Below are positions 1,345 through 63,071 of a DNA stretch of 64,000 nucleotides, piece by piece. Every line of letters starts with the position of its first letter. Position 1 is the first letter of the stretch. This DNA comes from Nannocystis bainbridge (lineage in GTDB: Bacteria; Myxococcota_A; Polyangia; Nannocystales; Nannocystaceae), in the NCBI RefSeq assembly GCF_028368995.1, contig NZ_JAQNDL010000003.1, positions 2,944,001 to 3,008,000 of the forward strand. Reading direction: 5' to 3'. The notes under the pieces were generated by a model. That model made no database searches, was not told the origin of the DNA, and saw only the letters and a list, made by a program, of their open reading frames with translations. The position numbers and the translations under genes are program-made.

Positions 1345-2337
1345 ATGACGCTCCGGCGCGTGGCCCTCACGGCCGCCCTGGCGTGCAACCCTCCGGCGAG
1401 CAGCGACCCGGCCCCCGTGGCCCCGGTCGAAGCCGCCCCGCCGGAGCCCACCTGCGAGGAACCCCCGCCCGGCACTCTCGCCTGGCTCGCCGAGCTCGCG
1501 GCCCCGGCCGCCGAAGCCCGGCGAGCCGTCGCGCCGCCTCGCGCCCCGACGCCCGACGATCCGCGCCCCGACGTCCCGCCGGGAAGCAGCGAGTCGACTG
1601 CGCGAAGCAGCGAGTCGACAACGCGAAGCGCCGAGTCCACTGCGCGCAGCGCCGAGTCCACTGCGCGAAGCAGCGAGCCCCGCAACGATTCCCCGACCCG
1701 CAATGATTCGCCGGCCCGCGGATCATCCCCCGGCCGCAACCCCGGTGAGCCCACGGTCGGCGAGCCGCCTGCCCGATCGGTCATGCCCGATCGGACATGT
1801 CCCTGGGTACTTTTTAAAACCGACGAGGGCCCGCTCGCCGTGCGCCCGCTCGGCCGCGGCGAGGCTGCCCCGCCGCACGTGCGCGCCCCCGTGCCCGTCG
1901 TCCCGCCGGCAGCTTGCCGCCCGTGTCGCTGGTCCGGCGTCGTCACCCCGGTCGGCCCGATCCTCCTCGCCGTGCGCCCCTCCGCCGACAGCGAGCTCGC
2001 CGCCGAGGCGTGGATCGGCGCCGGCATGCCGCCCTCGCCGCGCGTCGATGTCGAGCCCGCCCCTCTCGTGTTCGCCCCGCTGTGGTTCGGCCAACCTGGC
2101 TTTGGGGACAGCACCCTCCAGGGTCCCGCGTGGGCCCTCGCCCCGCGCCTGTGCGGCCGCGAGCTGGTCCTGCTGCCCACCCCGCGCCTCCCCGGCGCCG
2201 GCGCCGAGGAGCCCCCGCCCGCCCTCGTCCGCGCCGCTGGCGTCTACGCCGCCGCCGGCAGCGAGCTCCTGCGCCAGGACGTACCTATCCCTTCGGACAT
2301 GTCCAATTGCACAGCCATCCCGCTCGAGCTGCCCTGA
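1345..2337 (+). CDS. Hypothetical Pro-rich lipoprotein with internal SESTARS repeats
   Basis: LAC lipobox; starts 10 bp after the previous stop. Confidence 0.65.
   Translation: MTLRRVALTAALACNPPASSDPAPVAPVEAAPPEPTCEEPPPGTLAWLAELAAPAAEARRAVAPPRAPTPDDPRPDVPPGSSESTARSSESTTRSAESTARSAESTARSSEPRNDSPTRNDSPARGSSPGRNPGEPTVGEPPARSVMPDRTCPWVLFKTDEGPLAVRPLGRGEAAPPHVRAPVPVVPPAACRPCRWSGVVTPVGPILLAVRPSADSELAAEAWIGAGMPPSPRVDVEPAPLVFAPLWFGQPGFGDSTLQGPAWALAPRLCGRELVLLPTPRLPGAGAEEPPPALVRAAGVYAAAGSELLRQDVPIPSDMSNCTAIPLELP
1585..1676 (+). repeat. 21-bp coding tandem repeat (S/AESTARS, about 4 copies)
   Basis: agcagcgagtcgactgcgcga-like units. Confidence 0.8.
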
Positions 2338-2764
2338 GCCGCGTCTGACCGGGCGAACCAGCACCCTGCGACCGCGATCTCGTTCGTGGCGCCGGACCCG
2401 ACGACATCGCCGAGTCGGCCGATGAGCGAGGCCGTTCCCGCGCGGAGTTGTTTCCGCGCGGAAACAGTGCCCTCGGCGCCAATAAACACTCGGGTACGCG
2501 TTCATTCGATCGCCGCAATCGATTCGTCGCTCGCGCGAGAATCGAGCCCCGATCGGCACAGGCTGGGCTCGAATCCAGATCGCTCGTCCGATGACTCCTG
2601 GGCGGGTTTCGTTCGGGAGGCCCGCACGAGGTCCTCGACGTGCTCGACGCCGCAGTCGACACCTCCGCCCGGGTATGTCCATACGCTGCTACCCCTGCGT
2701 CCGAATTTTGACAGATGTCGGCGCCTCTCCGTAAGTTGTCATCCAATACCCTCGAGGCTCAGCC

Positions 2765-4471
2765 ATGCTCGAAATCGTATCTTTCGATCCGCCGATGAGG
2801 GTTCAATTCACGGCGGTATCGGGCCCTCTCCAGGCGTTCGCCGCCCAGTACCTGAGCCCGCAGCACCGGCTCGCGCTTCGACGCATTGTCGAATCCAGCG
2901 AGGTCATCACCGTCACCTCCGATGACTTCTTGCGCCTGATCGAGCTCGTCACCTACCCGTCCATCCCACGCAGGATGGACTTTCCTCTCGACGAGCGCGG
3001 AAACAATCGCGCGCTGACGATCATCGAGACGAACCTGTCGCTCAACCCCTTCTTCACCGAGGCGTACGCGCTCGACGAATTGGACAAGGTCGTCGCCTAC
3101 GCGCTCAAGGCCGGGATCTTGGAGCCGAGTTTTCTGTCTCTGAAGCTCACTTTCCACGACGTCCCGGGGAGATCCACGAGTGGCTGGACCAACGCGCGGA
3201 GCTTCATCGGGGACGAGCTTTATCCGCGGCTCGCCAAGAAATACTACAAGAGCGACCGATTGCTCGCCAAGGTCTATACACGCTCTGTCGAGGCCCCCCA
3301 GCACTACCTCCATTACCGCAGGAGGTTCCTCGAGCCCAGCGGTTCGAACGAGCCGACCCGCCGCGGGCGGCGGGAGATCACCCCGCTCGTCGTGCCGTCC
3401 ATGAACCAGTTCGGGATCCTGTCGCCGAGCACGGAGCTGGCGCGCGGCTCTCCCGACTTCACCGTCCCCACGGGCCTCGTACGGCGCATGCCTGGCAAGC
3501 TGATGTTCCTCCCGCCGTCCGAGGACGACGAGGGGCTGCAGAACTGGGCCGAGCGGAAGCGCCGCAAGTTCGGCTTCCCCTTCGTCGCCGGGCCGTCGGG
3601 CAGCATGGCTTACGACCTTGCGGTCTATCACTACTACCTCGAGCACGCCCGGGGCCTGCGCGTGAGCGACAGCGAATTCAGCGACAAGATGCTGAGGTTC
3701 GGGGTCTCCCGCGCGATCGCGTACGTCAAATACGGGCACCATAGCTTCTACGAGTCGCTCGTCCCGCTCATGGATCTGATCGGAGGCGCCGCGTTCACGG
3801 ACCCCGATGCGCTCTATCGATTCATCGTTCCCTACGTCGAGATGGGCCAGCGAAGCGGCAGGACCTACAGCCGCAGCCTCGTGCGATTGAAGGTCGCGCC
3901 GCACGTGGTGCACTGGGACTCCTATCTCTACGACTGGTACGACTGGCGCAGCTACAAGCCGGGCAACTACAAGCCGTGGACGATCACGAAGGGGCCGCTC
4001 GGGCTGAATGGAGGGGCGATCGCGCCGGGACGGTACATCTACGTCGTCCTCGCCACGGACCGCACCGTCCGCTACCTGCCGACAGAAGCCCATACCCACG
4101 AGCAGTACCGGTCGCACTCGCAGCTCGCCGGCGGGCTCAGTGTGTACGCCGCGGGCTATTTCGAGGTGGGCCTGGGCGACAAGCTCGTCGAGATCGACAA
4201 CAGCTCCGGACACTACAAGCCCGATGCGGCCACGATCCCTTATGCGGTCATGCTCATGGAGAAGCTGGGCTTCGACATCGAGGGCGTCAACGTGAGGGCT
4301 CACGTGATGAACGCCGCCGATATCAAGCTCTTCGCCTGGGCGCTCCAGCAGGCGAAGACGACCTTTCGCATCTCGATCGGCTGGGTCAAGTACGTCACGA
4401 GATTGAACAAGGGCCGCACGAGAAGCTTTCCGACACCGCCGTCGAATCTCCTCCAGTACATGCCGTACTGA
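2765..4471 (+). CDS. Toxin/effector-like protein with an S-HxxxE segment and a C-terminal NSSGHYKP domain
   Basis: 568-aa ORF with atypical codon usage; motifs PFVAGPSGS...YGHHSFYE and HSQLAGG..VYAAG...IDNSSGHYKP. Confidence 0.7.
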   Translation: MLEIVSFDPPMRVQFTAVSGPLQAFAAQYLSPQHRLALRRIVESSEVITVTSDDFLRLIELVTYPSIPRRMDFPLDERGNNRALTIIETNLSLNPFFTEAYALDELDKVVAYALKAGILEPSFLSLKLTFHDVPGRSTSGWTNARSFIGDELYPRLAKKYYKSDRLLAKVYTRSVEAPQHYLHYRRRFLEPSGSNEPTRRGRREITPLVVPSMNQFGILSPSTELARGSPDFTVPTGLVRRMPGKLMFLPPSEDDEGLQNWAERKRRKFGFPFVAGPSGSMAYDLAVYHYYLEHARGLRVSDSEFSDKMLRFGVSRAIAYVKYGHHSFYESLVPLMDLIGGAAFTDPDALYRFIVPYVEMGQRSGRTYSRSLVRLKVAPHVVHWDSYLYDWYDWRSYKPGNYKPWTITKGPLGLNGGAIAPGRYIYVVLATDRTVRYLPTEAHTHEQYRSHSQLAGGLSVYAAGYFEVGLGDKLVEIDNSSGHYKPDAATIPYAVMLMEKLGFDIEGVNVRAHVMNAADIKLFAWALQQAKTTFRISIGWVKYVTRLNKGRTRSFPTPPSNLLQYMPY

Positions 4472-4665
4472 CGCGAAAGCCGTGGCGACCGCCTGGCAAA
4501 GCGCCCGAGTTCTGGCGTCTACAGGCGACGCTCCGCGAAGCGCCCCCCCTCGAACTTCGGACCTCAAGACCCCCACGCCCCACAAACGCCGTAAACCCGA
4601 TCGCACATGCCCCTGAGGACAGATCGCGCCCCGCCACTCTCGAGGAGCCCGCGTATACTCCGAGC

Positions 4666-5680: not shown

Positions 5681-6625
5681 ATGACCCGCGACGACCCCGA
5701 AACGCCGTCCTCGACCGGACCCAGCGCTCGGCGCCCGCTCGAGCCCTCGCCCGCCGGCGACGACCTCGGCGCCCTGTCCCAGCAGCGGCCGCTCGCGGCC
5801 CCGCCAGCCCGTGGCGGCCCCGCCGCCACGCTCGACGAGCAGCGGCTCGCCCCTTCGCCTCCCGGTGACGTCGGCCCCCTCGCCACCCCGCCCATCACCG
5901 ACGACATCCGCGTCGCCCTCGAAGAGCAGCGCCCGCCCGACAAACAGGACCTCCTCGCCACCCCTCCCATCACCGACAACATCGCCGCCACCCTCGCCGA
6001 GCAGCGCCCTCCCGAGGAGAAGGACCTCCTCGCCACCCCGCCCATCCGCGACGACATCGCCGCCGTGCTCGAAGAGCAGCGCCCGCTCGACGCCTCGCCC
6101 GGCGGCGACCTCGGCGCCCCGCCCGTCGCCGAGACATGGCGTCCGCTCACCACCCCGCCTCCCAGCGAGCGGGACAACGAGCTCATGCGCGACCCGCCGC
6201 CTGGCGAGCACCACCTCGGCCGCTTCGCCGGCTACGGCGCCGCCAACCGCGTCCGCCGCATCCTGATCGCCTGCCTCTCCGTCCTCGTCGTCGCCACCGT
6301 GTTCGTCTGGTACGGCTGGGCTCGCCAGCGCCCCGAGCCCACGACGACCCTGCGCCAGTTCGAGCTCCCGGCCGGCACCGACACCTCCGACCGCCCGCGC
6401 GTGCTCGCCTGGTCGCAGGGCAAGGCGCGCCTCGGCCTCACCCGCGCGCCCCCCGGCGTCGACACCATCGAGCTGCCCGACCGCACCCTCAAGCTCAAGG
6501 ACGGCTCCGACATGGCCCAGTTCAAGGTCGTCGTCGAGGACGGCAAGACCACCGCGCTGGATCTGGTCTCCGGCGAGATCGTGGAGATCCTTCACCCCGG
6601 CGCGACCCCGCTGCTGCAGCCATGA
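5681..6625 (+). CDS. Hypothetical single-pass membrane protein with 25-aa N-terminal repeats
   Basis: LATPPIxDxI..LxEQRP repeats; TM segment ILIACLSVLVVATVFVWYGW. Confidence 0.75.
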   Translation: MTRDDPETPSSTGPSARRPLEPSPAGDDLGALSQQRPLAAPPARGGPAATLDEQRLAPSPPGDVGPLATPPITDDIRVALEEQRPPDKQDLLATPPITDNIAATLAEQRPPEEKDLLATPPIRDDIAAVLEEQRPLDASPGGDLGAPPVAETWRPLTTPPPSERDNELMRDPPPGEHHLGRFAGYGAANRVRRILIACLSVLVVATVFVWYGWARQRPEPTTTLRQFELPAGTDTSDRPRVLAWSQGKARLGLTRAPPGVDTIELPDRTLKLKDGSDMAQFKVVVEDGKTTALDLVSGEIVEILHPGATPLLQP

Positions 6626-6669
6626 CCTCGAGGACATGTCCCTCGAGGCGTGTCCCTGAGAACATCCTC
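6618..6669. repeat. 14-bp-phased RRRCATGYYY palindrome array (4 units)
   Basis: Cores at 6621, 6635, 6649, 6663; convergent junction. Confidence 0.8.
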
Positions 6670-7654
6670 AAGGCGCCAGGATCGCCGCCAGCTCCGCCGG
6701 CCAGGGCGCCGTGAACTGCACCATCTCGCGGGACTGCGGGTGCGGCAGCGTCAGCCCGGCGGCGTGCAGCGCGTGGCGTTGCAGCCCGAGCTCCGCCCCC
6801 AGCTCCGCCAGCTTCTTCCCGCCCTCGACCACCTTTAAAAACTCTTCCTCCGGCAGCCCGTACAGCTTGTCGCCGACCACCGCGTGCCCGATCTCCGCCA
6901 GGTGCACCCGGATCTGGTGCTGCCGCCCCGTCTCCGGCAGCGCCTCCACCAGCGTCACCGGCTTCTCTCTAAAGACTCCGTGGCGCAGCGGGCGGACCGT
7001 CGTCGCTGCTGGCAGCCCCCCGTCCGCCACCGGCACCGGCCCGATCTTGATCCGGATCTTCGACCCGATCGCGAACCCCAGTGACATGTCGATACGGACA
7101 TGTTCTTCGAGACAGCCGTGAACCAGCGCCAGGTACGACTTGCGGACCTCGCGGCCGAGGAACGCCTTCTTGAGCGCCGTCGCCGAGCCGCCGCGGCGGC
7201 CGAACACCATCACCCCTGACGTCTCGCGGTCGAGGCGGTGGGCCATGTCCCAGCCGTGGCCCGGGCCCAGGCGGTCGCGCAGCACCTGCGTCAGCGTGTG
7301 GCGGTGATAGCTCGCCGACGGGTGCACTGGCAGACCGGCCGGCTTGTCGATCACCAGCAGCGCCTCGTCGCGGTAGATCTCCCGGAAGTCGAGCACCACC
7401 TCCGGCTCACGCGGCGCCGGCCGTCGGATCACCAGCGCCTCGCCCGCGCGCACTCGCTGCGACGCGCGCAGCAGCACCTCGCCGGTGTCGGCGCGGCGGA
7501 CCTGGCCGTTGTCGACGATCGTCTGCACCCGCGTGCGCGACAGTCGGGCGATCCGGCTCGACAGGAAGCGATCGAGGCGAAAGCCGTCGCGGCCCGGGTC
7601 GACGACCAGCGGGATCTCGATGAACTCCTCCGGCGGCTCGCTCACCGCGGACAT
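6668..7654 (-). CDS. rluD: RluA/RluD family 23S rRNA pseudouridine synthase
   Basis: N-terminal S4 domain; DKPAGLPVHP, HRLDRETSG, TGRQHQIRVH, GDKLYG motifs. Confidence 0.9.
   Translation of the reverse strand: MSAVSEPPEEFIEIPLVVDPGRDGFRLDRFLSSRIARLSRTRVQTIVDNGQVRRADTGEVLLRASQRVRAGEALVIRRPAPREPEVVLDFREIYRDEALLVIDKPAGLPVHPSASYHRHTLTQVLRDRLGPGHGWDMAHRLDRETSGVMVFGRRGGSATALKKAFLGREVRKSYLALVHGCLEEHVRIDMSLGFAIGSKIRIKIGPVPVADGGLPAATTVRPLRHGVFREKPVTLVEALPETGRQHQIRVHLAEIGHAVVGDKLYGLPEEEFLKVVEGGKKLAELGAELGLQRHALHAAGLTLPHPQSREMVQFTAPWPAELAAILAP
7082..7119. repeat. 14-bp-phased palindrome array inside the rluD-like CDS
   Basis: tgacatgtcg atac ggacatgttc ttcg agacag; cores at 7085, 7099, 7113. Confidence 0.65.
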
Positions 7655-8311: not shown

Positions 8312-8377
8312 TCGCCTGTCCTTCGTGACAGGTCCCAAGGGGCATGCTCCTCCGAGCATGCCCCTTCGCGCATGTCC
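8312..8377. repeat. 14-bp-phased palindrome array (5 units)
   Basis: Cores at 8315, 8329, 8343, 8357, 8371; convergent junction. Confidence 0.85.
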
Positions 8378-17416: not shown

Positions 17417-17468
17417 GCGAATGTCCCGAGGGACATGTTACGAGGGACATGCCCTTTCAGGCATGTCC
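17417..17468. repeat. 14-bp-phased palindrome array (4 units)
   Basis: Cores at 17420, 17434, 17448, 17462; convergent junction. Confidence 0.85.
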
Positions 17469-25112: not shown

Positions 25113-25114
<2 letters not shown>

Positions 25115-25164
25115 GCATGCTCTGAAGACCATGCCCGCGAGGACATGTCTTCGCGGGCATGTCC
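25113..25164. repeat. 14-bp-phased palindrome array (4 units)
   Basis: Cores at 25116, 25130, 25144, 25158; convergent junction. Confidence 0.85.
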
Positions 25165-28106: not shown

Positions 28107-29435
28107 GTGCCGAGAAACCCCATCACCGCCCGCGCCCTGGCCGTTCAGACCCTCCGGCAGATCGATCAACGCCGCGGCTTCAGCAACCGGATCCTGGCCG
28201 AGCAGTTCGAGCGTCACCCGGACCTCGAGCGGCGCGAGCGCGGCCTCACCACCAACCTCGTGTACGGCGTGCTGCGCCACCGCGGCCGCCTCGACGCGCT
28301 GATCGACGCCGTCGCCGTGCGCCCGAAGAACCTCAGCGCCCGCGCGCGAGAGATCGCCCGCGTCGCCGTGTTCGAGCTGCGCGAGCTGCAGCACCCGCCG
28401 CACGCCGCGATCTCGCAGGCCCTCGGCCTCGCCACCGCGCTCGACCCGAGCGGCGGCCTGGCCCGCCCGCTGCACGCCATCCTCTCCGCCATCGACCGCG
28501 AAGGCGCCGCCGCCGACGCCCGCCTCGCCGCCGGCAAGCCGCTCGACGTGCTCGCCGATCGCTGGTCGATCCCCCGCTGGCTCGCGGGCCGCTGGATCGC
28601 CAACCTCGGCCCCGACCTCGCCCTCGCCCGCGCCCGCGCCCTCGCCGAGCCGCCCGCCGTCGAGCTGCGCGTCGACCTGTCCCGAACGACAGCCGACGAC
28701 GTCGCCGCGGCCCTGCGCGAGGCCGAGCCGAAGGCCCTCGTCGAGCCGATCGCCGACCAGCCGCAGGCCCTGCGGGTGCGCAGCGGCGGCGAGCTGGTCC
28801 GCCACCCGCTGCACGAGCGCGGCCTGTTCTCGGTCCAGGCCCTCGGGGCGCAGCGCGCCGCCCTGACTCTTGCGCCATGTCCTGAAGAACATGTCCTGGA
28901 CGCCTGCGCCGGCATGGGCACCAAGTCGCTGCAGCTGGCCGAGCTGATGGGCCGCCGCGGCCGTCTGGTCGCCGCCGACGCCAGCGAGCTCCGGCTCGGC
29001 GAGCACGCCGCCCTGCGCCGCCGCGGCGGGCTCGACGTCGAGGGCCTCGAATTCACCTCGGTGATCGCCGACCTCGCCGCCGATGAGCCGCAGCCCGGCG
29101 TCGACGACTCGACCTACGACGCCGTCCTGCTCGACGCCCCCTGCACCGGCCTCGGCAACCTGGCCCGCCACCCCGAGCTGCGCGGCACCGTGCAGTTCGC
29201 GGACATCGCCGTCTGCGCCGCCCTCCAGCGCCGCCTGCTCGACCGCAGCCGCGCCCGCGTGCGCCCCGGCGGCCGCCTGGTCTACGCCGTCTGCAGCCTC
29301 GAGCCCGAGGAGGGCCCGCGCCTGGTCCGCGCCGCGTGCGACGCCGGCAGCTTCACGCTCGAGCACGAGGAGACCTGGACGCCCGAGGCCCACCAGACCG
29401 ACGGCTTCTACCTGGCCCGCCTGCGCCCGAGCTGA
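28107..29435 (+). CDS. rsmB: 16S rRNA m5C967 methyltransferase RsmB/Sun
   Basis: NusB-like N-terminus; VLDACAGMGTKS, LLDAPCTGLG, VYAVCS, DGFYLA motifs. Confidence 0.9.
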   Translation: MPRNPITARALAVQTLRQIDQRRGFSNRILAEQFERHPDLERRERGLTTNLVYGVLRHRGRLDALIDAVAVRPKNLSARAREIARVAVFELRELQHPPHAAISQALGLATALDPSGGLARPLHAILSAIDREGAAADARLAAGKPLDVLADRWSIPRWLAGRWIANLGPDLALARARALAEPPAVELRVDLSRTTADDVAAALREAEPKALVEPIADQPQALRVRSGGELVRHPLHERGLFSVQALGAQRAALTLAPCPEEHVLDACAGMGTKSLQLAELMGRRGRLVAADASELRLGEHAALRRRGGLDVEGLEFTSVIADLAADEPQPGVDDSTYDAVLLDAPCTGLGNLARHPELRGTVQFADIAVCAALQRRLLDRSRARVRPGGRLVYAVCSLEPEEGPRLVRAACDAGSFTLEHEETWTPEAHQTDGFYLARLRPS

Positions 29436-29447: not shown

Positions 29448-29471
29448 GGACATGTTCTAAAAGGCATGTCC
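29448..29471. repeat. 14-bp-phased palindrome pair just after the rsmB stop
   Basis: ggacatgttc taaa aggcatgtcc. Confidence 0.7.
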
Positions 29472-29759: not shown

Positions 29760-29811
29760 GGACATGGCCCCGAGAGCATGCCCTTCGAGACATGCCCTTC
29801 GGAACATGTTC
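29760..29811. repeat. 14-bp-phased palindrome array (4 units)
   Basis: Cores at 29763, 29777, 29791, 29805. Confidence 0.85.
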
Positions 29812-37088: not shown

Positions 37089-37274
37089 CACGACCGAAGG
37101 GACATGTCCTTAATTTCAGAACATGTCCCTTCAGACACCCGCCGGCGCTCTCGATAACATGTCCCTTCGGACAGACAGAAGCGCGCCCTCTCTGACAAGA
37201 GAGAGCTTGGCAGGGCCCCTCGGGGCGGACGATCGCGCCGGCGCTTTCGAAAACATGTCCCTTCGGACATCTCG
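37086..37274. repeat. Cluster of 14-bp-phased palindrome pairs (catgtcc-cttc-ggaca)
   Basis: Core pairs at 37089/37103, 37122/37136, 37158/37172, 37254/37268; convergent junction. Confidence 0.8.
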
Positions 37275-45579: not shown

Positions 45580-45631
45580 GGACATGTTCCGGGGGGCATG
45601 TCGCTTCGGACATGTCCCTCGAAACATCCAC
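45580..45631. repeat. 14-bp-phased palindrome array (4 units)
   Basis: Cores at 45583, 45597, 45611, 45625; fills the convergent gap. Confidence 0.85.
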
Positions 45632-50726: not shown

Positions 50727-50792
50727 AGACATGCCCTCCAGGACATGTCCTTTCAAGCATTGCCTTCAGGACATGTCCCAAAGGGCATGTCC
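50727..50792. repeat. 14-bp-phased palindrome array (5 units)
   Basis: agacatgccc tcca ggacatgtcc tttc aagcattgcc ttca ggacatgtcc caaa gggcatgtcc. Confidence 0.9.
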
Positions 50793-53509: not shown

Positions 53510-53570
53510 GCCGACGCTCCGCGCGAGCGGCCACGAGCGAGCGACGCGGCCCGGTCGTCCGAGCGCCGCA

Positions 53571-55200: not shown

Positions 55201-55216
55201 CGGGCCGGCGCGTCGC

Positions 55217-55549: not shown

Positions 55550-55565
55550 CGGTGGGGTCTCGCAA

Positions 55566-55747
55566 TCAGGTCCGAAGGACCGTGAAGTGGCTCAGGTCCG
55601 AAGGACCGTGAAGTGGCTCAGGTCCGGGGGACCGTGGATTCGCTCAGGTCCGAAGGACCGTGGATTCGCTCAGGTCCGAAGGACCGTGGAGTGGCTCAGG
55701 TCCGAAGGACCGTGGAGTGGCTCAGGTCCGAAGGACCGTGGAGTGGT
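55566..55747. repeat. 26-bp tandem repeat, 7 copies, with GGTCC-GAA-GGACC hairpin core
   Basis: Units tcaggtccgaaggaccgtg(a/g)a(gtg/ttc)gc starting at 55566, 55592, 55618, 55644, 55670, 55696, 55722. Confidence 0.95.
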
Positions 55748-55932
55748 GAATTGGCCAGGAGGGTCGCGGCCCGTGCGGGGGGTGGTCCCGCGGGCCGGCC
55801 GTCGCGCGCATTCGATCGCCGGGGCCGGCCGGTCGCGGCGTTAGATACACGCTGGCCCGCACCCCAGCAAGGCGCCGTGAACGCCCTTCTTGCGGAAGGT
55901 CGCCCGCTCGGGTCATAACCACTACCGCTCGC

Positions 55933-56769
55933 ATGGCGCCGCGGACCCTGCCCTCGCCCCAGTGCTCACGTCGGACCTGGTTGCACGGCCTCGCCGCCGC
56001 CGCCGGGGCCGCACTCCTGCCCAGGCCGGCGCGCGCGGACGAGTCCGCCGCCGAGTCGCCGCCCAAGCGCATTCTCATCGTCGGCGACAGCATGATCGCC
56101 GGCGGCGTCGGCCTGTTCCTCGAGAACGGCCTGCGTGACGAGCACAGCTATGTGGTCCGGCGCAAGGGCAAGAGCAGCACCGGCCTGGCCCGGCCCGACT
56201 TCTTCGCCTGGCCCAAGGAGGCGAAGAAGCAGGTCGACGAGTTCGCGCCCGACGCCGCGGTGGTGATGTTCGGCGGCAACGACGTGCAGGGCCTGCGCAT
56301 GCCGGACAAGGGCTGGATCACCTGGCCCGAGCCGGAGTGGCCGGAGGAGTACGCGCGGCGCGTCAATGACTTCGCCGACATCGTCGCCGCCGACGGCCGG
56401 CCGTTGTTCTGGATCGGCATGCCGGTGATGCGGCCGGAGAAGTTTCACGTGCGGGTCCAGCGGGTCAACACGATCTACCGGGCCGAGATGGCGATCCGCC
56501 CGAACGCGCACTTCATCGACATCTGGCGGCTCCTGGCCGACGCCAAGGGCGGCTACACCGACCGGCTCGACGCCGACGGCGAGCCCGGGGGCAAGACGAT
56601 CCGGGTCCGCGCGGGCGACGGGATCCACCTGAGCGTCGCTGGCGCCCACCGCGTCGAGGCGCATGTGCGGGCCTTCGTCCACGCGGTGCTGTCCGGGTCC
56701 CAGCCGGACACTTCGGCCGACCTCGCGGTCGCGGGTGCGCCAGCGGTCGCGCCCACGCCTGCAGGCTGA
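55933..56769 (+). CDS. SGNH/GDSL hydrolase (DUF459-like) with Tat-like signal
   Basis: SRRTWL, IVGDS, STGLARPDFFAW, GGND, DGIH motifs. Confidence 0.88.
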   Translation: MAPRTLPSPQCSRRTWLHGLAAAAGAALLPRPARADESAAESPPKRILIVGDSMIAGGVGLFLENGLRDEHSYVVRRKGKSSTGLARPDFFAWPKEAKKQVDEFAPDAAVVMFGGNDVQGLRMPDKGWITWPEPEWPEEYARRVNDFADIVAADGRPLFWIGMPVMRPEKFHVRVQRVNTIYRAEMAIRPNAHFIDIWRLLADAKGGYTDRLDADGEPGGKTIRVRAGDGIHLSVAGAHRVEAHVRAFVHAVLSGSQPDTSADLAVAGAPAVAPTPAG

Positions 56770-56924
56770 TACCGGCGGGCCTTTCGCGGCCGACAGCCGT
56801 GCGCCGCCCGGTCGGGCGCGAACGCGGCGTGGCAAATTTCGACGGGCAAACTCACCTCCGCCATGCGAGGCGATGCACATGCACCTCGCGCGCGGCCGGC
56901 CGCTTGGGGCAACATAGCTCGCCC

Positions 56925-59411
56925 GTGAGCGAGGCCCCGCACAAGCGCCTGCGTGACCGGTGGATCGCGTGGGTCCTCGTGCAGCACCGCCTGGTGCTCG
57001 CGCTGGCGCTGCTCCTCACCGTCGTCTCTGCCTACCTTTCGTCGCTGCTGCGCATCGACAGCGACCTGCGTTCGCTGTTGCCCGTGGACCACCCCGTCCT
57101 CGCCAGCATCGACCGCATCGAGACTTCGTTCGGCGCGCTCGGCAGCGTCAACGTCGTGCTCAAGGAGGGCTCGCCCGAGCAGCGCCACGCGCTCGCCGAC
57201 GCCATCGCCGAGCGCGCCGCCCAGAGCCCGCTGGTGCGCGACGTCGAGTACCGCCTGCGCAGCGATTTCTTCGCCGAGCACGCGCTCTACTACCTTGCCG
57301 ACGCCGAGATGGAGGCGCTCGACGAGCACTTCCAGGCGTGGACGCACTACGAGCTGTGCCGCGCCGAGCCCGACGTCTGCCTCGACCAGCCCGACCCCGA
57401 GGCGCCCAAGGCCCTGCGCACCTTCATCCGCAGCAAGCAGGACGCGGCGCTGGCTCGCACCAGCTTCCAGGACTACTTCGAGCGCGACGAGATCTCCGCG
57501 CTGGTGCTGCTGATCCACCCGACCCAGCCGTCGAGCGACCTCGACTTCGCCGCGGCGGTGTCGAACCAGATCCGCGCCGACGTGGCCGCGGTGGTGAGCC
57601 AGCCCGGCACGCCGTGGGCCGACTCGGGGATCCACTACAGCGTCGTCGGCCCGTACACGATCAAGGCCGAGGAGCGCGAGACGATCCAGCGCGACATGCT
57701 GCGCAGCGGCGCGTTCGGGGTCCTCGGCGTCATCGTGATCCTGTACCTGCTGTTCCGCTCGGGCCGCGCGGTGCTGACGCTGCTGGTGCCGCTGGTGTGC
57801 GGCGTGACGTGGTCGATGGCGGTGACGGAGATCGTGCTCGGCCGCCTCAACGCGATCACCAGCCTGATCTCGACGGTGGTGGTCGGCATGGGCATCGACG
57901 CCGGCATCCACATCCTCGTGCGCGTGCGCGAGGAGCAGGGCCGCGGCAGCGACCGCGAGGCGCTCGCCCGCGCCTTCGGCAACGTGATCGGCCCGCTGCT
58001 GATCGCCTCGGCGACCACGCTCGGCGCGTTCGCGGTGATGGCGAGCTCGGTGTTCCCGGCGTTCCAGGAGTTCGGCCTGATCGCCGGCTTCGGCGTGGCG
58101 CTGTGCCTGCTGGCGATGGTCACGGTCTACCCCGCGATCCTCTGCCTCGTCGGCGTCAAGCGGGTCGGCGAGCCCGAGGCCGGGCGGCCGCGGCCGCGGC
58201 TGCTGACGCGCGTGGTGCTGGCGCGCCCGGGGCTGATGCTCGGGCTGGTGGCGGCGCTGACCGTCGGCGCGGCCGTGTTCGCGCCGCGGGCCGAGTTCGA
58301 GAACTCGACCCGCGAGCTGCAGTCGGCCCGCACCCGCGCGCTCTACAAGCCCGAGGTGTTCCTCATCAGCAAGATCTTCGGCAAGGACATCCACGCCGGG
58401 GTGCTGGTGGTCTCGACGCTCGACCAGGCGCGCGCGGTGCTGAACCAGGCCCGCGCGGTGCAGGCCGAGCGCATGACCGATGGGACAGGTACCGTCGTCG
58501 CCGAGCTGCTCGGCGCGCCCGACCTGTTGCCCGATCCGTCGATCGACCCGGCCAAGCGCAAGGAGACGATCACGGTGATGACGGCCGACATCCCCGAGCG
58601 CACGTGGAAGCGGCTCGAGGAGCGCGCGGCCGGCACGGGCGAGGACGCCGAAGAGGGCCTGGCGCCCGAGGACGCGCGTCGGCTGCAGAACATGCTCAAG
58701 GCGGAGCCGGTGACGGTCGAGCGCCTGCCGCCGGCGATCCGCGACAAGGTGTTCAGCCCGGACGGCCGCTTCGCGGTCTACGCCTACCCGAACTTCGACG
58801 CGGCCGACATCTCCATGGGCCTCCAGTTCATGGAGGAGACGGCCAAGTACACCGAGGGCGTCGAGGGCCTGCAGTCGGACGACGCGCTGTTCGTCGGCGA
58901 GACCACGGTCTACGCGCTGATGTATCAGCTGATGCAGTCGGAGGCGCCGACGGTGCTGGCGATGGCGCTGCTGCTGGTCGCGGTGATCGTGGTGGCGCAG
59001 ATCCGTTCGCTGCCGCGCACGCTGCTGACGCTGGCGCCGCTGCTGCTCGGCATGCTGTGGCTGGTCGGCCTGATGGCGGCGGCGGGCGTGCGCTTCACCC
59101 TGTTCAACATCCCGATCTTGCCGGCGATCCTCGGCATCGGCGTCGACAACGGGGTGTACTTGACCGACCGGATCCGCCACATGCGCGACCAGGCCGGCGG
59201 GATCGCCCACGCGCTCGGCGAGACCGGCGCGGCGATCGGCGCGGCCACTGCGACCACGGCGATGGGCTTCGGCGCGTTCTGCATCGCCGACTCCGGCGGC
59301 CTGCGCGGGATCGGCGTGCTCGCGGTGTTCGGCATCGGCATCGCCGCCGTGACCGCGATCCTGGTGCTGCCGAGCGTGGCCGCGATCGCGGCCCGCCGGC
59401 GCAAGCGGTAG
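56925..59411 (+). CDS. MMPL/RND superfamily transporter
   Basis: Two TM bundles with GMGIDAGIH and GIGVDNGVY motifs. Confidence 0.9.
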   Translation: MSEAPHKRLRDRWIAWVLVQHRLVLALALLLTVVSAYLSSLLRIDSDLRSLLPVDHPVLASIDRIETSFGALGSVNVVLKEGSPEQRHALADAIAERAAQSPLVRDVEYRLRSDFFAEHALYYLADAEMEALDEHFQAWTHYELCRAEPDVCLDQPDPEAPKALRTFIRSKQDAALARTSFQDYFERDEISALVLLIHPTQPSSDLDFAAAVSNQIRADVAAVVSQPGTPWADSGIHYSVVGPYTIKAEERETIQRDMLRSGAFGVLGVIVILYLLFRSGRAVLTLLVPLVCGVTWSMAVTEIVLGRLNAITSLISTVVVGMGIDAGIHILVRVREEQGRGSDREALARAFGNVIGPLLIASATTLGAFAVMASSVFPAFQEFGLIAGFGVALCLLAMVTVYPAILCLVGVKRVGEPEAGRPRPRLLTRVVLARPGLMLGLVAALTVGAAVFAPRAEFENSTRELQSARTRALYKPEVFLISKIFGKDIHAGVLVVSTLDQARAVLNQARAVQAERMTDGTGTVVAELLGAPDLLPDPSIDPAKRKETITVMTADIPERTWKRLEERAAGTGEDAEEGLAPEDARRLQNMLKAEPVTVERLPPAIRDKVFSPDGRFAVYAYPNFDAADISMGLQFMEETAKYTEGVEGLQSDDALFVGETTVYALMYQLMQSEAPTVLAMALLLVAVIVVAQIRSLPRTLLTLAPLLLGMLWLVGLMAAAGVRFTLFNIPILPAILGIGVDNGVYLTDRIRHMRDQAGGIAHALGETGAAIGAATATTAMGFGAFCIADSGGLRGIGVLAVFGIGIAAVTAILVLPSVAAIAARRRKR

Positions 59412-59427
59412 TCGTTTTCGCCTTCAA

Positions 59428-59465
59428 GGACATGTCGCTCGGGACATGTCCTTCGAGACATTTTC
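59428..59465. repeat. 14-bp-phased palindrome array (3 units)
   Basis: Cores at 59431, 59445, 59459. Confidence 0.8.
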
Positions 59466-59517
59466 CATGGCTGGCCCACGGGTGGCGCGAGGTCGCGCGA
59501 GCTGGTAGCGTGCGTGC

Positions 59518-61854
59518 GTGACTGCGCCGAGCGAGCGAGGGTCCGAGCTGCGGGGCGCGGCCGCGTTCGTCGCCGCGGCGGCGCTGCTGGCGGGGGCGCT
59601 CGCGCTGGTGCAGGTGCGGCTCGAGCCGCCGCCAGCGCTCGGCGAAGATGTCCCCGAGGACATGTTCTCCGCGACACGAGCGCTCGCGCGGCTGGAGCGG
59701 CTCATCGGCGACGACCTGCCCCACCCGGTCGGCTCGGCCGCGGCGGTGGGCCTGCGCGCGCGCATGCTGGCCGAGTTCGCGGCCCTGGGGATCGACGCGG
59801 AGGTCCAGGAGGGCTTCGCCTGCGGTCCGCGCAGCGCCGGCTGCGGGCGGGTGTGGAACGTGGTCGCGGCGCTGCCGGGGATCGAGGACGGGCCGGCGCT
59901 ATTGGTCTCGGCGCACCACGACTCGGTCGCGGCCGGGCCCGGCGCCGGTGACGACGGCGCCGGCGTGGCGGCCGTGTTCGAGGTGGCGCGGGCGCTGCTC
60001 GCCGGCCCGCGGTCGCGCAACCCGATCGTGTTCGTGCTGGTCGACGGCGAGGAGTCGGGCCTGCTCGGCGCGCAGGCGTTCGTCGACGCCCACCCGCGCG
60101 CGGCCTCGATCGGCGCCGTCATCAACCTCGACGCCGGCGGCACGCGCGGCGTCACCTCGCTGACGCGCACGACCGCGAACGACGATGGCCTGGTCGCGGC
60201 GGTCGCCGAGGCGGTGCCGCGGCCCTACGGCGCCAGCGTGATCGGGGCCGTCTACGGGCTCACGCCCTACGACACCGACTTCACCGTCTACAAGAACGCG
60301 GGCTGGCCGGCGCTCGACTTCGGCTTCGGCGAGGACAAGGCCCACTACCACACCCCGCTCGATCGCCTGGACAACCTCGACGCGGCGAGCGTGCAGCACC
60401 TCGGCGACACCGCGCTCGCGGCCGTGCGCGCGCTGGCCGGGGCCGACCTCGCGGCCCTGCCCGGGCGCTCGCGGGTGTACGTCGACGCGCTCGGGGCCCG
60501 CATGCTGCACCTGCGCACGCTGTGGATCCCCGGGCTCGCCGCGCTCGCGCTCGGGCTGCTCGTACCGGTCGCGCGTCGGCTCGCGCGCGAGTCCGGCGGC
60601 GATCGTCGCTCGTGGCTCCGGCGCGGGCTCGGCTTCGCGGCGCTGGTCGGGCTGCCGGCGGCGATCGGCGCCGGGTGGATGGCGGCGATCGCCTGGCTCA
60701 CCGCGGCCGAGGTCGCCGGCCACGCGGCCCCGCTGCCGGCCCGCGTCGCGCTGTGGACGATCGTGCTGGCGACCGGCGGCGCGCTGGTCGGGCCGCTGGC
60801 GCGCGCCGACGCGGCCGCGCGCGCGTGGCTGTGGCTCGGGCCGTGGCTGTGGCTGGCGGCGATCGCCGCGATCACGGCGGTCGCGCTGCCGGGCGCGAGC
60901 GTCGGCGTGCTGCCGCCGGCGCTGGTCGCCGGCATGCTGGCGTTTTGGACATGTTTCTTGGGCAATGCTCGTAAGAGCATGTCGTGGAGGACATGGCCCT
61001 CGGGACCTGTGATCCTCCTCGGCCTGGCGCTGCCGGCGCTGATGTGGCTGCAGGCGGCGGTGCGGGTCGAGGCGGTGTTCGGCCTCGAACCGGCGGCGGC
61101 CGGGGTGCTGGCGCTGCTGGCCTCGCTGCTGGCGCCGCTGTGGCACGGGCTCGGGCGCCTGCGCCGGCCGCTCGTGCTGGCCCTCGCGGTCGCCTGCGCC
61201 GTCGCCACGGCGATCGCCGTCACCTCGCCGGCGTACAGCGAGGCGCGGCCGCGGCGCCTGAGCCTGCTGTATCACCTCGACGCCGACAGCGGCGCGGGGC
61301 GGTGGATCGTCGGCGCGGACGCGCCGCTGCCGGCCGCGCTGCAGGCGGCCGCGGCGTTCGGCCCGGCCGGGCCGGCGTTCGCGTGGGACAGCGACGCTTC
61401 GCCCAGCTTCGTCGCCCCGGACGGTTCGTCGCCGCCCGGGCTGTCGCCGCCGACAGTCGAGCCCGAGGCGGACCCGGAGCCGCCACCGGGCGCGGGTCGG
61501 CGGGTGGTGGTGCGCGTGCGGTCGACCCGCGGCGCGCGGGTGATGGCGATGTTCGTGCCCGCGGCCGCGGGGCTGCGCAGCGTGGCGATGAACGGGGTGG
61601 TCCTGCCGCCCTACCCGGAGCACCGGCGCAAATACGTCGAGGGCGGCGAGGTCTACGGGATCGTCGCGCCGCCGCCGGAGGGCGTGGTAGTGACGCTCGA
61701 GCTGGACAGCGCCGCCGCGGTCGAGGCTGTCGTTTGGGACCTCTCGGAGGGGTTGCCCGCGGCGGGTGACGCGCTGAAGGCGGCGCGCCCGACCTGGGCC
61801 GTGCCCTCGCACGGCGGCGACCGGACCATGGTCTCGCGCCAGATCTCGCTATGA
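59518..61854 (+). CDS. M28 family peptidase with C-terminal membrane domain
   Basis: SAHHDS, GAGDDGAG, DGEESGL, NLDA, TDF, YHT motifs; multiple TM segments. Confidence 0.92.
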   Translation: MTAPSERGSELRGAAAFVAAAALLAGALALVQVRLEPPPALGEDVPEDMFSATRALARLERLIGDDLPHPVGSAAAVGLRARMLAEFAALGIDAEVQEGFACGPRSAGCGRVWNVVAALPGIEDGPALLVSAHHDSVAAGPGAGDDGAGVAAVFEVARALLAGPRSRNPIVFVLVDGEESGLLGAQAFVDAHPRAASIGAVINLDAGGTRGVTSLTRTTANDDGLVAAVAEAVPRPYGASVIGAVYGLTPYDTDFTVYKNAGWPALDFGFGEDKAHYHTPLDRLDNLDAASVQHLGDTALAAVRALAGADLAALPGRSRVYVDALGARMLHLRTLWIPGLAALALGLLVPVARRLARESGGDRRSWLRRGLGFAALVGLPAAIGAGWMAAIAWLTAAEVAGHAAPLPARVALWTIVLATGGALVGPLARADAAARAWLWLGPWLWLAAIAAITAVALPGASVGVLPPALVAGMLAFWTCFLGNARKSMSWRTWPSGPVILLGLALPALMWLQAAVRVEAVFGLEPAAAGVLALLASLLAPLWHGLGRLRRPLVLALAVACAVATAIAVTSPAYSEARPRRLSLLYHLDADSGAGRWIVGADAPLPAALQAAAAFGPAGPAFAWDSDASPSFVAPDGSSPPGLSPPTVEPEADPEPPPGAGRRVVVRVRSTRGARVMAMFVPAAAGLRSVAMNGVVLPPYPEHRRKYVEGGEVYGIVAPPPEGVVVTLELDSAAAVEAVVWDLSEGLPAAGDALKAARPTWAVPSHGGDRTMVSRQISL
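60947..61012. repeat. 14-bp-phased palindrome array (5 units) inside the M28 peptidase CDS
   Basis: Cores at 60950, 60964, 60978, 60992, 61006. Confidence 0.8.
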
Positions 61855-62168
61855 CGGCCTGGGCGCAGTTCCGTCCACATGGCCGCAGATGGGCCGAAGC
61901 ACCGGCGACAGCCGGTCCGAGGTCGTCGCCGCCGCCCGGGTTGCGGGCGCGCGAGACCCGAGGCCGGCGAGGCACGAAGCCCTGGCCCGCGCGCCTGCCG
62001 GGCCGCGTCGGCGAGCTCACCCGCGGCGCGAAGCTGCCCGGTTTTGTCGCCCTCCGCACGTCCGGCGGCGACGCCCGGCGACATTTGCTATGGTGAACCG
62101 GAAGGCGGCTGGCCGCGCGAGCGACGGGCCGTGACAACCCTTCACGACGGACTACTCTGGCTCCACTC

Positions 62169-62957
62169 ATGAACCGCCTCCGGCCCACCAAAGGGCGCCG
62201 GCCCTTCGGCACCCCGCGTCGCCTGCGCCCCGACCTCGCGCGTGACGGCGTGCTCGAGGCCGATCGCGAGGCCCCGGAGACGCAAGCGCTGGTGCGCCGC
62301 GGGGTCGGTTGGGACCAGTCGGCGGCGCTCGAGACGACCCCGTTCCGCGAGACGGACCCGCTCGATTCGCCGCTGTCGTCGCGGATCTTGAGCCTGCTTT
62401 CCGACCCGCGGATCGATTTCCTGACGGTGGCCTCGGCCGCGGACGCGCTCGGCTCGCCGCGCCAGGACGTCGAGAACGCGCTCGAGGCGATGCGCCAGGC
62501 CGGCGTGCTGCTGGCGATCGGCGGCGGCTCGGTGGTCCGCTACGGGGTCACGCCCGAGACGAAGGGCGAGCTCGAGGCCGAGTTCCGCGCCGCCGCGCAG
62601 GAGCTCGGCGAGCACGCGCTGCTGGCTCGCCTGTCGACCGAGTCGGCCATGGTGCCGTTCGAGGACGAGGAGCCGCGGCTGCCCGCGACCGCCGGCCTGC
62701 TGAGCCTGTTCCTGCCCGGCACCGGCCAGCTGCTCAACGGCGACATCGGCCGCGCCTCGCTGGTGTTCGCGGTGTGGAGCCTCGCGTGGATCACCCATCT
62801 GTCGCCGGTGTGGACCTTCGTGTGCCTGTACGCCGGCGCCGAGGCGTTCTTGACCGCGAAGATCCGCAGCATGGAGCGCAAGCTGGCCGAGGACAACCAC
62901 GCGCTGCCGCCCGCCGGCGCCGGCCCGAAGAAGCTGCCCGCGCCGCGGCCGACCTGA
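62169..62957 (+). CDS. Hypothetical protein with winged-HTH-like segment and C-terminal TM region
   Basis: LTVASAADALGSPRQDVENALEAM; LSLFLPGTGQL membrane motif. Confidence 0.75.
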   Translation: MNRLRPTKGRRPFGTPRRLRPDLARDGVLEADREAPETQALVRRGVGWDQSAALETTPFRETDPLDSPLSSRILSLLSDPRIDFLTVASAADALGSPRQDVENALEAMRQAGVLLAIGGGSVVRYGVTPETKGELEAEFRAAAQELGEHALLARLSTESAMVPFEDEEPRLPATAGLLSLFLPGTGQLLNGDIGRASLVFAVWSLAWITHLSPVWTFVCLYAGAEAFLTAKIRSMERKLAEDNHALPPAGAGPKKLPAPRPT

Positions 62958-63005
62958 GTCCGTTCGGGCAGGTCCCGGGTCGGCTTTGCATCGAGGTGTT
63001 CTTTA

Positions 63006-63071
63006 GAGCATGTCCCCGGGCACATGCTCTTTCGAGCATGCGCGAAGGGGCATGCCCTTTCGAGCATGTCC
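63006..63071. repeat. 14-bp-phased palindrome array (5 units)
   Basis: Cores at 63009, 63023, 63037, 63051, 63065; convergent junction. Confidence 0.9.

Follow-up and report, generated by a model that had tools for sequence, protein, structure and literature searches.

The window, a 64-kb stretch of Nannocystis DNA, raises the question of what a short palindrome, RRRCATGYYY, is doing there in small clusters of constant step. The decamer occurs 33 times, against a mean of 2.41 (standard deviation 1.62, largest value 6) in 100 dinucleotide-preserving shuffles, none of which reached 33; the excess of phased palindromes is real and far above chance. A scan of the whole genome (11,048,555 bp in 5 contigs, 71 to 72% GC) recovered 4,032 strict units, whose pair distances peak where the original prediction had placed them: 926 at 14 bp, 507 at 28 bp, and 459 at 42 bp, followed by 189 at 56 bp, 58 at 70 bp, and 22 at 84 bp, as opposed to 13 at 13 bp and 3 at 15 bp. 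Strict units number 2 to 68 per 100 kb across all five contigs, without a large regional trend.

Array borders are formed by half-units, with TGTCC and GGACA evident in the flank profiles. Because arrays end in half-units, the repeating module is better described as TGTCC-N4-GGACA, a 14-bp inverted repeat, than as the 10-bp palindrome first proposed. Joined head to tail, such blocks create GGACATGTCC at each junction and a period of exactly 14 bp. The genome contains 1,987 copies of this module but only 0 to 16 with any other spacer length between 0 and 12; spacer length is thus constant at 4 bp, and spacer sequence is free. In total, there are approximately 1,500 arrays of 1 to 10 units, the spacers of which vary from copy to copy and have no common inner sequence. 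Free spacers and a fixed phase agree with the view that this is no slippage repeat, but the distinction is incomplete: some arrays carry slippage-type tandem duplications of 14, 28, or 42 bp, and the spacers of a single array are slightly more similar than chance (z, 2 to 4.7).

The clusters originally listed for the window, parsed as 30 entries, were rescored by counting in-phase units that depart from RRRCATGYYY at no more than 2 positions. By this measure, 23 contain at least two in-phase units, and the other 7 are single units or half-unit pairs (for example, CCTGTCC-N4-GGACAGG). Ten of the 30 are strong, having at least three in-phase units that include a strict one (Table 1). The entry at 37089-37268 does not keep a single 14-bp phase, because its span is not divisible by 14.

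Table 1. Arrays, pairs, and loose units in the window, with their surroundings
Feature	Position	Strand	Strong entry	Sequence	Location
Two-unit array	1779..1802			GGTCATGCCC gatc GGACATGTCC; another gatc just before	
Four-unit array	6618..6669		yes	First unit holds the TGA stop of the + gene (CATGACC)	Occupies the gap between convergent ORFs 5681-6625 (+) and 6668-7654 (-)
Two-unit array	7082..7105			TGACATGTCG atac GGACATGTTC	
Five-unit array	8312..8377		yes	Contains CCTGTCC ttcg tGACAGG and the exact inverted pair GGGCATGCTC ctcc GAGCATGCCC	11 nt 3' of the stop of ORF 7672-8301 (+)
Four-unit array	17417..17468		yes		9 nt off the 3' end of ORF 17477-18391 (-)
Four-unit array	25113..25164		yes		24 nt off the 3' end of ORF 25188-26807 (-)
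Two-unit pair	28873..28896			CGCCATGTCC tgaa GAACATGTCC	Within the RsmB-like ORF
Doublet	29448..29471			GGACATGTTC taaa AGGCATGTCC	13 nt past the stop of the RsmB-like gene 28107-29435 (+)
Four-unit array	29760..29811		yes	ttcg spacer twice	Shares an intergenic region with doublet 29448..29471
Loose units/pairs	37100..37274			Units at 37100-09, 37119-28, 37251-74; more than one phase	3' of ORF 36405-37088 (+)
Four-unit array	45580..45631		yes		3 nt off the 3' end of ORF 45634-46695 (-)
Five-unit array	50727..50792		yes	AGACATGCCC tcca GGACATGTCC tttc AAGCATTGCC ttca GGACATGTCC caaa GGGCATGTCC; decayed middle unit flanked by two good pairs	Between convergent Roadblock/LC7-domain gene (+) and DapD-like gene (-)
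Three-unit array	59428..59465		yes		17 nt past the stop of the MMPL-family gene 56799-59411 (+)
Two-unit pair	59644..59667			GAAGATGTCC ccga GGACATGTTC	Close to the start of the M28 peptidase ORF
Five-unit array	60947..61012	+	yes	Translated (…WTCFLGNARKSMSWRTWPSGP…)	Inside the reading frame of an M28 peptidase-domain ORF (778 aa); also in the sister species' gene
Five-unit array	63006..63071		yes		Between convergent ORFs 62169-62957 (+) and 63088-65571 (-)

Placement relative to genes

Genes were called crudely, on the basis of GC3 (6,976 ORFs, 81% coding). Relative to these calls, the 1,331 convergent intergenic regions hold 624 array loci (0.47 per region, 1.35 per kb), the 3,649 tandem regions hold 625 (0.15 to 0.19 per region), and the 1,161 divergent regions hold 97 (0.08 per region); 47% of convergent versus 8% of divergent intergenic regions have an array. 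At the median, an array starts ~24 nt past the upstream stop and, start codons being unreliable in these calls, a nominal 224 nt ahead of the next start; contact with the stop codon itself is frequent. A gene 3' end lies at -30 to +60 nt for 65 to 77% of four-to-six-unit arrays, compared with 16% of random noncoding places. Any repeat simply tolerated at a distance from promoters would be expected to show a 3'-end bias of this kind. Array size also differs by context: five-unit arrays, which amount to two pairs, number 144 in convergent versus 59 in tandem regions, whereas doublets show no convergent preference (176 versus 200).

Arrays follow within 120 nt of 1,194 of the 6,976 protein ORFs but of only 2 of 102 tRNA genes, and their near-absence after tRNA genes argues that they are not general terminators. 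Moreover, 735 of the 1,987 modules lie well within ORFs of at least 600 nt, and at least one real gene has a five-unit array in its translated sequence, which makes a strong terminator untenable at these in-gene sites. Nor did we find support for chromosome organization akin to matS/MatP or NBS/Noc, as had been suggested: array density is roughly even on the five contigs, with no confinement to or exclusion from one contig region, and follows gene ends rather than chromosome regions. Termination and BIMEs, mentioned in the same prediction, were the right direction.

Paired decamers and conservation between species

Five-unit arrays show a quality pattern of good-good-decayed-good-good. Relative to permuted controls, Watson-Crick complementarity is in excess between units 1 and 2 of doublets (z, 7.4) and, in five-unit arrays, for 1:2 and 4:5 (z, about 6) but not for 2:3, 3:4, 1:5, or 2:4. 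Adjacent decamers show inverted-repeat covariation in both their outer and inner positions, with odds ratios of 2.3 to 2.9 at five paired positions (1,418 pairs), and we therefore regard the hairpin-capable 24-nt pair as the working module. Such a pair is a near-perfect inverted repeat in which a 10-bp stem and a 4-nt loop are possible, and array folds are predicted with z-scores between -3 and -9 relative to shuffles. The covariation is Watson-Crick only and similar on both strands. The ratio of G·U to A·C on the sense strand is only 1.2 to 1; because the two are equally depleted against marginals (0.85 and 0.83, respectively), the pattern resembles DNA-level symmetry and not selection on an RNA stem.

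At least two units occupy the same place in the sister genome (G001; same genus, syntenic DNA about 90% identical) for 51 of 57 arrays, the remaining 6 places being decayed copies or anchoring failures. No array among these 57 places is clearly present in one species and absent from the other at about 10% divergence, which indicates low mobility. For neighbor units that had not been selected on, identity is 92% in the core, 73.5% in the outer positions, and 53% in the spacer, in comparison with 85% at codon third positions. Taken over all ranges, the core is 92 to 100% and the spacers 48 to 64% identical, a disparity that needs purifying selection or drive, and conservation of the CATG core is greater than base pairing alone requires. 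Only 1 of 44 spacers is unchanged between the two species, and the counterpart of array 50727..50792 has four units with different spacers; the prediction that spacers differ while phase is kept holds within the genome and between species alike.

Related genomes were checked as proposed: the motif is present in all 10 other genomes of the genus (607 to 743 adjacent pairs in the five same-genus genomes of 12 Mb or more) and in each genome scanned from two sister genera (5 of 5 in one, 7 of 7 in the other), with the same core and gap across all three genera. In the lower-GC sister genera, A-rich and T-rich bases flank the pair. The motif is absent from 42 genomes representing 13 other genera of Nannocystaceae and matches in only 2 of 150 genomes from the rest of the phylum (4 and 1 hits). 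Among the genomes scanned, its range is three Nannocystaceae genera, apart from these few hits.

What the element may be

We tentatively favor, at a probability of about 0.4, a lineage-specific REP/BIME-like gene-end element that is read by a putative sequence-specific factor. One decamer pair tends to sit at the 3' end of each protein gene, and two pairs, 42 bp apart, between converging genes; each pair can fold into a hairpin or be extruded as a cruciform. Under this proposal, the pair would act in the transcript or in transcription-opened DNA, where the putative factor would read the invariant CATG at the middle of the stem. The messenger 3' end might thereby be marked or limited, with pausing or termination, 3'-end protection, or coupling to the terminating ribosome as candidate routes. 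REP/BIME sequences of E. coli are thought to mark or limit messenger 3' ends in that way. We infer the factor, the action on transcripts, and the nature of the effect. A bolder version, in which a new factor of Nannocystis and two sister genera would bind in 14-bp register to the arrays of considerably more than a thousand gene ends, making them a new transcription-unit boundary system, and in which the 4-bp gaps would be genuine hot spots of mutation, is unlikely.

The original proposal of cooperative sites for a dimeric protein translates into duplex-DNA sites lying side by side every 14 bp (120 degrees per site); on the chromosome, the bound protein would be a roadblock, a topological barrier, or a nucleoid protein, with RNA uninvolved. 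Several features fit: a 4-bp gap more exact than hairpin loops need, spacers fixed in length and free in sequence, borders at whole 14-bp inverted-repeat modules (the typical size of a helix-turn-helix operator), a CATG core kept beyond the needs of pairing, modules within genes too, purely Watson-Crick covariation similar on both strands, and recurrence of pairs at 42 bp, about 4 helical turns. We nevertheless consider it rather unlikely, as covariation of adjacent decamers extends to their outer halves, which independent half-site binding does not predict and which suggests hairpin or cruciform formation; the presence of a single pair at a gene end but of two where genes converge leads back to transcription, density is even along the contigs without regional pattern, and no candidate protein was found.

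Distinctly unlikely, too, is a selfish or neutral palindrome without host function, growing by slippage, its arms matched by hairpin-templated correction during replication, and surviving where it does the least harm, that is, at gene 3' ends and in tolerant protein loops. The order convergent > tandem > divergent is usual for tolerated repeats, and the tandem duplications, the slight likeness of spacers within arrays, the in-frame copies within genes, the Watson-Crick-only covariation, and the hypervariable loops (as expected of DNA hairpins) all accord with such an origin; it sits poorly with the low mobility, the disparity between core and spacer identity, the lack of a detectable REP-type transposase in the genome, the persistence of one core and gap in three genera, and a pair number that tracks the number of gene ends. 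Very improbable is a methylation- or repair-linked drive on RCATGY or CATG, with arrays as a by-product, such as has been proposed for the HIP1 palindrome of cyanobacteria: conservation is strongest in CATG, and units are present both in coding and in noncoding DNA, but a site of 4 to 6 bp leaves the 14-bp phase, half-unit borders, pairs, and gene-end placement unexplained.

Little is known of how transcripts are ended or delimited in very G+C-rich, large-genome bacteria such as myxobacteria, and here one fixed word stands at the ends of about a sixth of protein genes and of nearly half of converging pairs, with an unusual combination of exact periodicity, a conserved core, and gaps evolving more rapidly than silent sites. 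If a factor reads this word, a gene-end system amenable to study would have been discovered purely from sequence; if the gaps are true hot spots, hairpin loops would be exposed, or cut and repaired, in living cells, for which the arrays would offer a natural test of short DNA hairpins forming and mutating in vivo. The arrays are also useful as gene-end marks in annotating Nannocystis-type genomes and may serve as expression parts in natural-product myxobacteria.

Comparison with known systems

Several known repeat classes differ in form. MITEs have a defined length and a common interior, end in terminal inverted repeats, and are flanked by target-site duplications, whereas the arrays vary in unit number, have differing spacers, and share no inner sequence. 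CRISPR arrays combine repeats of 23 to 50 bp with spacers of similar length, as opposed to a 10-bp unit and a 4-bp spacer in about 1,500 short arrays. DNA uptake sequences (Neisseria, Haemophilus) and HIP1 (cyanobacteria) are 8- to 12-bp words present by the thousands in coding and noncoding DNA, the former often as inverted pairs 3' of genes, but these words do not form fixed-step arrays. The p53 response-element half-site, RRRCWWGYYY, has the same 10-bp consensus and paired use, and literature matches to GGACATGTCC are, among the matches listed, all eukaryotic and about half concerned with p53; the likeness is one of letters only, the present genome being bacterial, with a gap fixed at 4 bp and no sign of a related protein. 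Rfam gave 0 matches at gathering score in the window, and we found no description in print of this exact-step palindrome array form.

Intrinsic terminators consist of a G+C-rich hairpin followed by a T run. The arrays resemble them, and the two-way terminators that separate converging genes in particular, in placing a stable hairpin shortly past the stop, its symmetry making it usable from both sides, and, in the lower-GC sister genera, in the A-rich and T-rich bases around the pair, but differ in repeating one common stem sequence at about 1,500 places, also within genes. T content is at background within 10 nt of the last unit; lacking a T-tract on their 3' side, the arrays do not qualify as canonical intrinsic terminators, and the 13 terminator-like sites found in 44001-64000 include no array.

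Among the closest counterparts in form are the REP/BIME elements, short hairpin-capable palindromes that occur by the hundreds to thousands 3' of genes and in convergent intergenic regions. Short linkers of set length join them into clusters, and they usually lie within the transcribed 3' region. Their unit is a strictly extragenic, imperfect palindrome of 20 to 40 bp, and the RAYT (Y1 transposase) gene of REP systems is usually flanked by repeats. In Nannocystis, by contrast, the unit is a perfect 10-bp palindrome (14-bp module) at an exact 14-bp period, with free and very fast-changing spacers and copies within genes too; the repeated word alone spans 10 to 14 bp, and a decamer pair makes a 24-nt stem-loop with covariation. 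A search for RAYT (Pfam PF01797), positive in 6 of 14 known genomes as a control, gave 0 matches in this genome (90.5% complete, 5 contigs). One account of REP sequences (PMC3733652) gives them a GTAG or CGTC tetranucleotide at one end; array flank profiles contain neither tag. Like the REP/BIME elements of E. coli and other proteobacteria, the arrays are clustered, hairpin-capable as decamer pairs, mostly located at gene ends, and biased toward convergent regions.

Phased arrays of a 14-bp inverted repeat

The phased palindromes of the original prediction are borne out both within the window and across the genome. The decamer RRRCATGYYY (the unit) occurs 33 times in the window, versus a mean of 2.41 and a maximum of 6 in 100 dinucleotide-preserving shuffles (0 of 100 reaching 33), and these sites, read in a 14-base register, form arrays whose 4-base gaps (spacers) differ. 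Genome-wide (11.05 Mb in 5 contigs, 71 to 72% G+C), there are 4,032 strict, mismatch-free units, most frequently GGACATGTCC (956 copies), and the distances between them peak at 14 bp (926), 28 bp (507), 42 bp (459), 56 bp (189), 70 bp (58), and 84 bp (22), with counts of 0 to 15 at the distances adjoining those peaks. Units with at most one mismatch follow a strict unit at +14 in 1,724 cases, versus 17 at +13 and 6 at +15. At the level of individual sites, the predicted list, parsed as 30 clusters, holds up for 23, which have at least two in-phase units at ≤2 mismatches; ten clusters are strong, the other 7 of the 30 amount to single units or half-unit pairs, and the entry at 37089-37268 combines units that do not share one 14-bp phase.

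Arrays in this genome do not end at decamer borders: the half-unit TGTCC lies 5′ of the first good unit and GGACA lies 3′ of the last, with background composition outside. The motif TGTCC-N4-GGACA is present in 1,987 copies, versus 0 to 16 for any other gap within 0 to 12. Because of these half-unit borders and the preference for a gap of 4, the block that repeats is an inverted repeat of 14 bp whose 4-bp centre is free in sequence. Such blocks follow one another head to tail, and the decamer palindrome is the junction between two of them. Solitary blocks number 769, and their consensus (RCC-TGTCC-N4-GGACA-GGY) is itself palindromic. Gap sequences are diverse and have an A+T content above the genome level, the most frequent being CTTC/GAAG, TTCG/CGAA, TCGA, and GATC.

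Chaining units of at most one mismatch, with one bad unit bridged, yields 2,671 chains, which span 1 (1,190), 2 (638), 3 (186), 4 (267), 5 (253), 6 (110), or 7 to 10 (27) units. Five-unit arrays are mostly ordered good-good-poor-good-good, which accounts for the nearly equal height of the 42-bp and 28-bp peaks. Some long arrays consist of pairs every 42 bp, and others are plain duplications of 14, 28, or 42 bp (examples in the table). Spacers inside a single array are slightly more alike than expected by chance (z of 2 to 4.7); slippage therefore adds to array growth, and the earlier remark that the arrays are unlike a slippage repeat holds only in part.

Paired units and their divergence between sister species

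When all adjacent units are pooled, mutual information is near zero because paired and unpaired neighbours are mixed, and covariation is visible only once arrays are sorted by span and position. In doublets (two neighbouring decamers), Watson-Crick complementarity between units 1 and 2 amounts to 7.93 versus 7.72 pairs (z of 7.4, 500 permutations), and direct identity falls below the permuted level (z of −3.9). In five-unit arrays, the same permutation test detects excess complementarity at units 1:2 and 4:5 (z of about 6) and none at units 2:3, 3:4, 1:5, or 2:4. The covarying signal resides at variable positions of inner and outer halves alike, with odds ratios of 2.3 to 2.9 at five variable paired positions (1,418 pairs). 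Given these odds ratios and the complementarity at 1:2 and 4:5, neighbouring decamers evolve as a single 24-nt inverted repeat, with a 10-bp stem and a 4-nt loop. A long nested hairpin (unit 1 with 5 and unit 2 with 4), which is the ViennaRNA energy minimum for 50715-50805, is rejected, there being no 1:5 or 2:4 covariation and no complementarity between spacers 1 and 4 (z of −0.5).

Sense-strand G·U pairs outnumber A·C pairs (590 versus 480 and 557 versus 440; 1,338 versus 1,115 in a wider set, in which Watson-Crick pairs are enriched). Against the marginals, both are depleted to a like extent (0.85 and 0.83), a conservative comparison because selection would shift the marginals as well. An asymmetry this slight speaks against strong selection for an RNA stem and in favour of symmetry at the DNA level.

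We compared these arrays with those of a sister species of the same genus over a 1.2-Mb sample that is syntenic and about 90% identical (92.6, 94.5, and 84.7% at codon positions 1, 2, and 3). Within the first 400 kb, 51 of 57 arrays of at least two units are matched by at least two units at the corresponding place; the remaining 6 either have decayed or failed to anchor, none of them being a demonstrable empty site. Stricter anchors recover a good unit at 90 of 112 arrays. In the arrays that align without gaps (n = 40), units are 88% identical (CATG, 95 to 99%) and spacers are 64% identical. To avoid selection on the consensus, we also scored, within intergenic arrays, 95 units adjacent to strict ones, for which identity is 92% in the core, 73.5% at the outer positions, and 53% in the spacers. 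Only 1 of 44 spacers with unit-like flanks in both species is unchanged, compared with about 23 expected from third-position identity, although entire units being gained or lost could produce some of this apparent change; on average, 1.9 of 4 positions are identical in these spacers, versus 1.1 in shuffles. Clean arrays with no gap within 20 nt, a set too small to stand alone (5 of 112 arrays), retain 44 of 44 core, 56 of 66 outer, and 14 of 24 spacer positions, with 89.5% identity in noncoding flanks. The array at the dapD locus of the window counts 5 units in N. bainbridge and 4 in the sister species, and its spacers differ entirely between the two. Loop inversion by template switching is rejected as a source of such differences, since spacers of the sister species resemble the reverse complements of their counterparts only at chance level.

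Placement relative to genes

Genes were called from third-codon-position G+C, a crude procedure (6,976 ORFs, 81% coding) in which stops are exact and starts are inexact. Array loci are densest in convergent intergenic regions (624 in 1,331, or 0.47 per region), followed by tandem (625 in 3,649, or 0.15 to 0.19) and divergent regions (97 in 1,161, or 0.08). In tandem regions, arrays begin at a median of 24.5 nt past the upstream stop and 224.5 nt ahead of the next start. A gene 3′ end falls between −30 and +60 nt of 65 to 77% of arrays of 4 to 6 units, versus 16% of random noncoding places. Stop-to-array distances are sharply concentrated at 6 and 11 nt, with a further cluster between −3 and +2 nt, since the flanking unit often contains the TGA stop (CATGACC, TGACATG). 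Doublets divide almost evenly between tandem and convergent regions (200 versus 176), and five-unit arrays, with their two pairs, favour convergent regions (59 tandem versus 144 convergent), which corresponds to roughly one pair for each gene end.

Several observations count against a plain terminator: there is no T-run 3′ of arrays in the flank composition of this genome; an array lies within 120 nt downstream of 2 of 102 tRNA genes versus 1,194 of 6,976 protein ORFs (17%); and 735 of the 1,987 blocks fall well inside ORFs of at least 600 nt (frame counts of 418, 234, and 83), the class most affected by the crude gene calls. Between 44001 and 64000, none of 13 terminator-like sites coincides with an array, and a canonical-looking intrinsic terminator in the window indicates that ordinary terminators coexist with the arrays. 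The in-frame, five-unit array of the window is bordered on both sides by third-position G+C of 0.8 to 1.0 in one frame and has an array at the matching place in the sister species.

Coordinates of arrays and other features in the window and the N. bainbridge genome (contigs C1, C2, and C4)
Source	Position	Strand	Feature	Remarks
Window	6618-6627, 7082-7091		TGA stop inside unit	Also genome-wide
Window	60947-61012		Five-unit array in frame, translated	Within 778-aa ORF with M28 peptidase domain
Window	47469-47496	−	Canonical-looking intrinsic terminator	12-bp G+C-rich stem, then TTTGCTTTTA
Window	5878-6091		75-bp tandem repeat, 2.9 copies	Within ORF 5681-6625; would encode a protein repeat of 25 residues rich in Pro and Asp
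Window	31039-31217, 34352-34511		ACCACCGA-type Thr-rich repeats	Precede each CCG/GGC tract
Window	31895-32911, 35207-35679	+	Long 9/18/27/72-bp repeats, CCG/GGC-rich	In ORFs 31395-33248 and 34701-36044; look like collagen-type Gly-X-Y tracts
Window	42072-42280		97-bp tandem repeat, 2.2 copies, 76% matches	Long intergenic region past ORF 40946-42022
Genome	C4:430267-430360		Plain 42-bp tandem duplication	Spacers copied too
Genome	C4:434662-434769		Plain 14-bp tandem duplication	Spacers copied too
Genome	C4:122883-122976		Plain 28-bp tandem duplication	Spacers copied too
Genome	C1:4516431-4536530 (C1 end)		Repeats C2:3012356-3033751 (C2 end)	Looks like assembly overlap or fold-back at contig ends; counterparts of C1 and C2 adjoin in the sister species
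Genome	C1, around 4524340		7.9-kb stretch present twice	Opposite directions

Taxonomic range and competing readings

The nearest DapD loci belong to the genus Nannocystis (an N. punicea record is 95% identical), and each of the 10 other genomes from this genus has the pattern of two adjacent units, with 607 to 743 copies in the five genomes of at least 12 Mb and 3 to 31 copies in the five of at most 9.1 Mb (64 to 88% complete). Two sister genera carry the pattern in 5 of 5 (8 to 20 copies) and 7 of 7 genomes (1 to 109 copies), and a third carries it in 1 of 6; none of 42 genomes from 13 further genera of the family has it, and in this family-level survey the reversed pattern, serving as control, gives 0 to 1 matches. 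Among 150 genomes from elsewhere in the phylum, 2 match (4 and 1 copies). Sister-genus elements have A/T outer bases (AAACATGTCT-like), and those displayed are doublets, some with weak further units. In mechanical ORF lists for 3 sister-genus loci, the pair marks the end of ORFs on either strand at 2 of them, which is suggestive only, as A+T-rich words end ORFs anyway.

Conservation of the CATG core exceeds what pairing alone explains and implies a sequence reader or a drive, because wobble intermediates are tolerated equally at outer and core positions and yet drift is confined to the former. In the best-supported account, a reader of CATG and of the exact 4-bp gap would hold the element in place and in sequence. 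We infer the function, the reader, and the level of action (RNA or DNA) from these patterns, and tentatively assign hairpin-capable pairs a function at gene ends (probability of about 0.4). The original prediction had read the arrays as cooperative sites for a dimeric protein on duplex DNA that acts on the chromosome: DNA-level symmetry is consistent with this model, the regional chromosome-organising pattern proposed with it does not appear along the contigs, and we consider it possible but doubtful. A tolerated repeat without function, with which growth by slippage is compatible and a core held beyond pairing is not readily reconciled, seems unlikely, and a methylation or repair drive, which could accommodate the conserved core, is improbable.

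Assembled metagenome and metatranscriptome contigs from relatives 90 to 95% alike, which do not show ends or strands, give low cover of the intergenic array. We found no published description of such arrays in the literature searched, which is thin on subscription journals and covers articles without their supplements. The passages on repetitive sequence in PMC5658511 describe none, and PMC12306157 contains no occurrence of Myxococc, Nannocystis, Sorangium, RAYT, or tandem; among the 20 matches listed for GGACATGTCC, out of 47 papers containing it, all are eukaryotic and about half concern p53.

With respect to known families, Rfam returns 0 matches for the window. No Y1 transposase/RAYT is detected in the genome, and a RAYT-mobilised REP is rejected; the arrays lack the constant body of a MITE and lie outside the dimensions of CRISPR. 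The arrays are best classified as a lineage-specific family resembling REP/BIME, in which hairpin-capable pairs at the 3′ ends of protein genes form the working unit.
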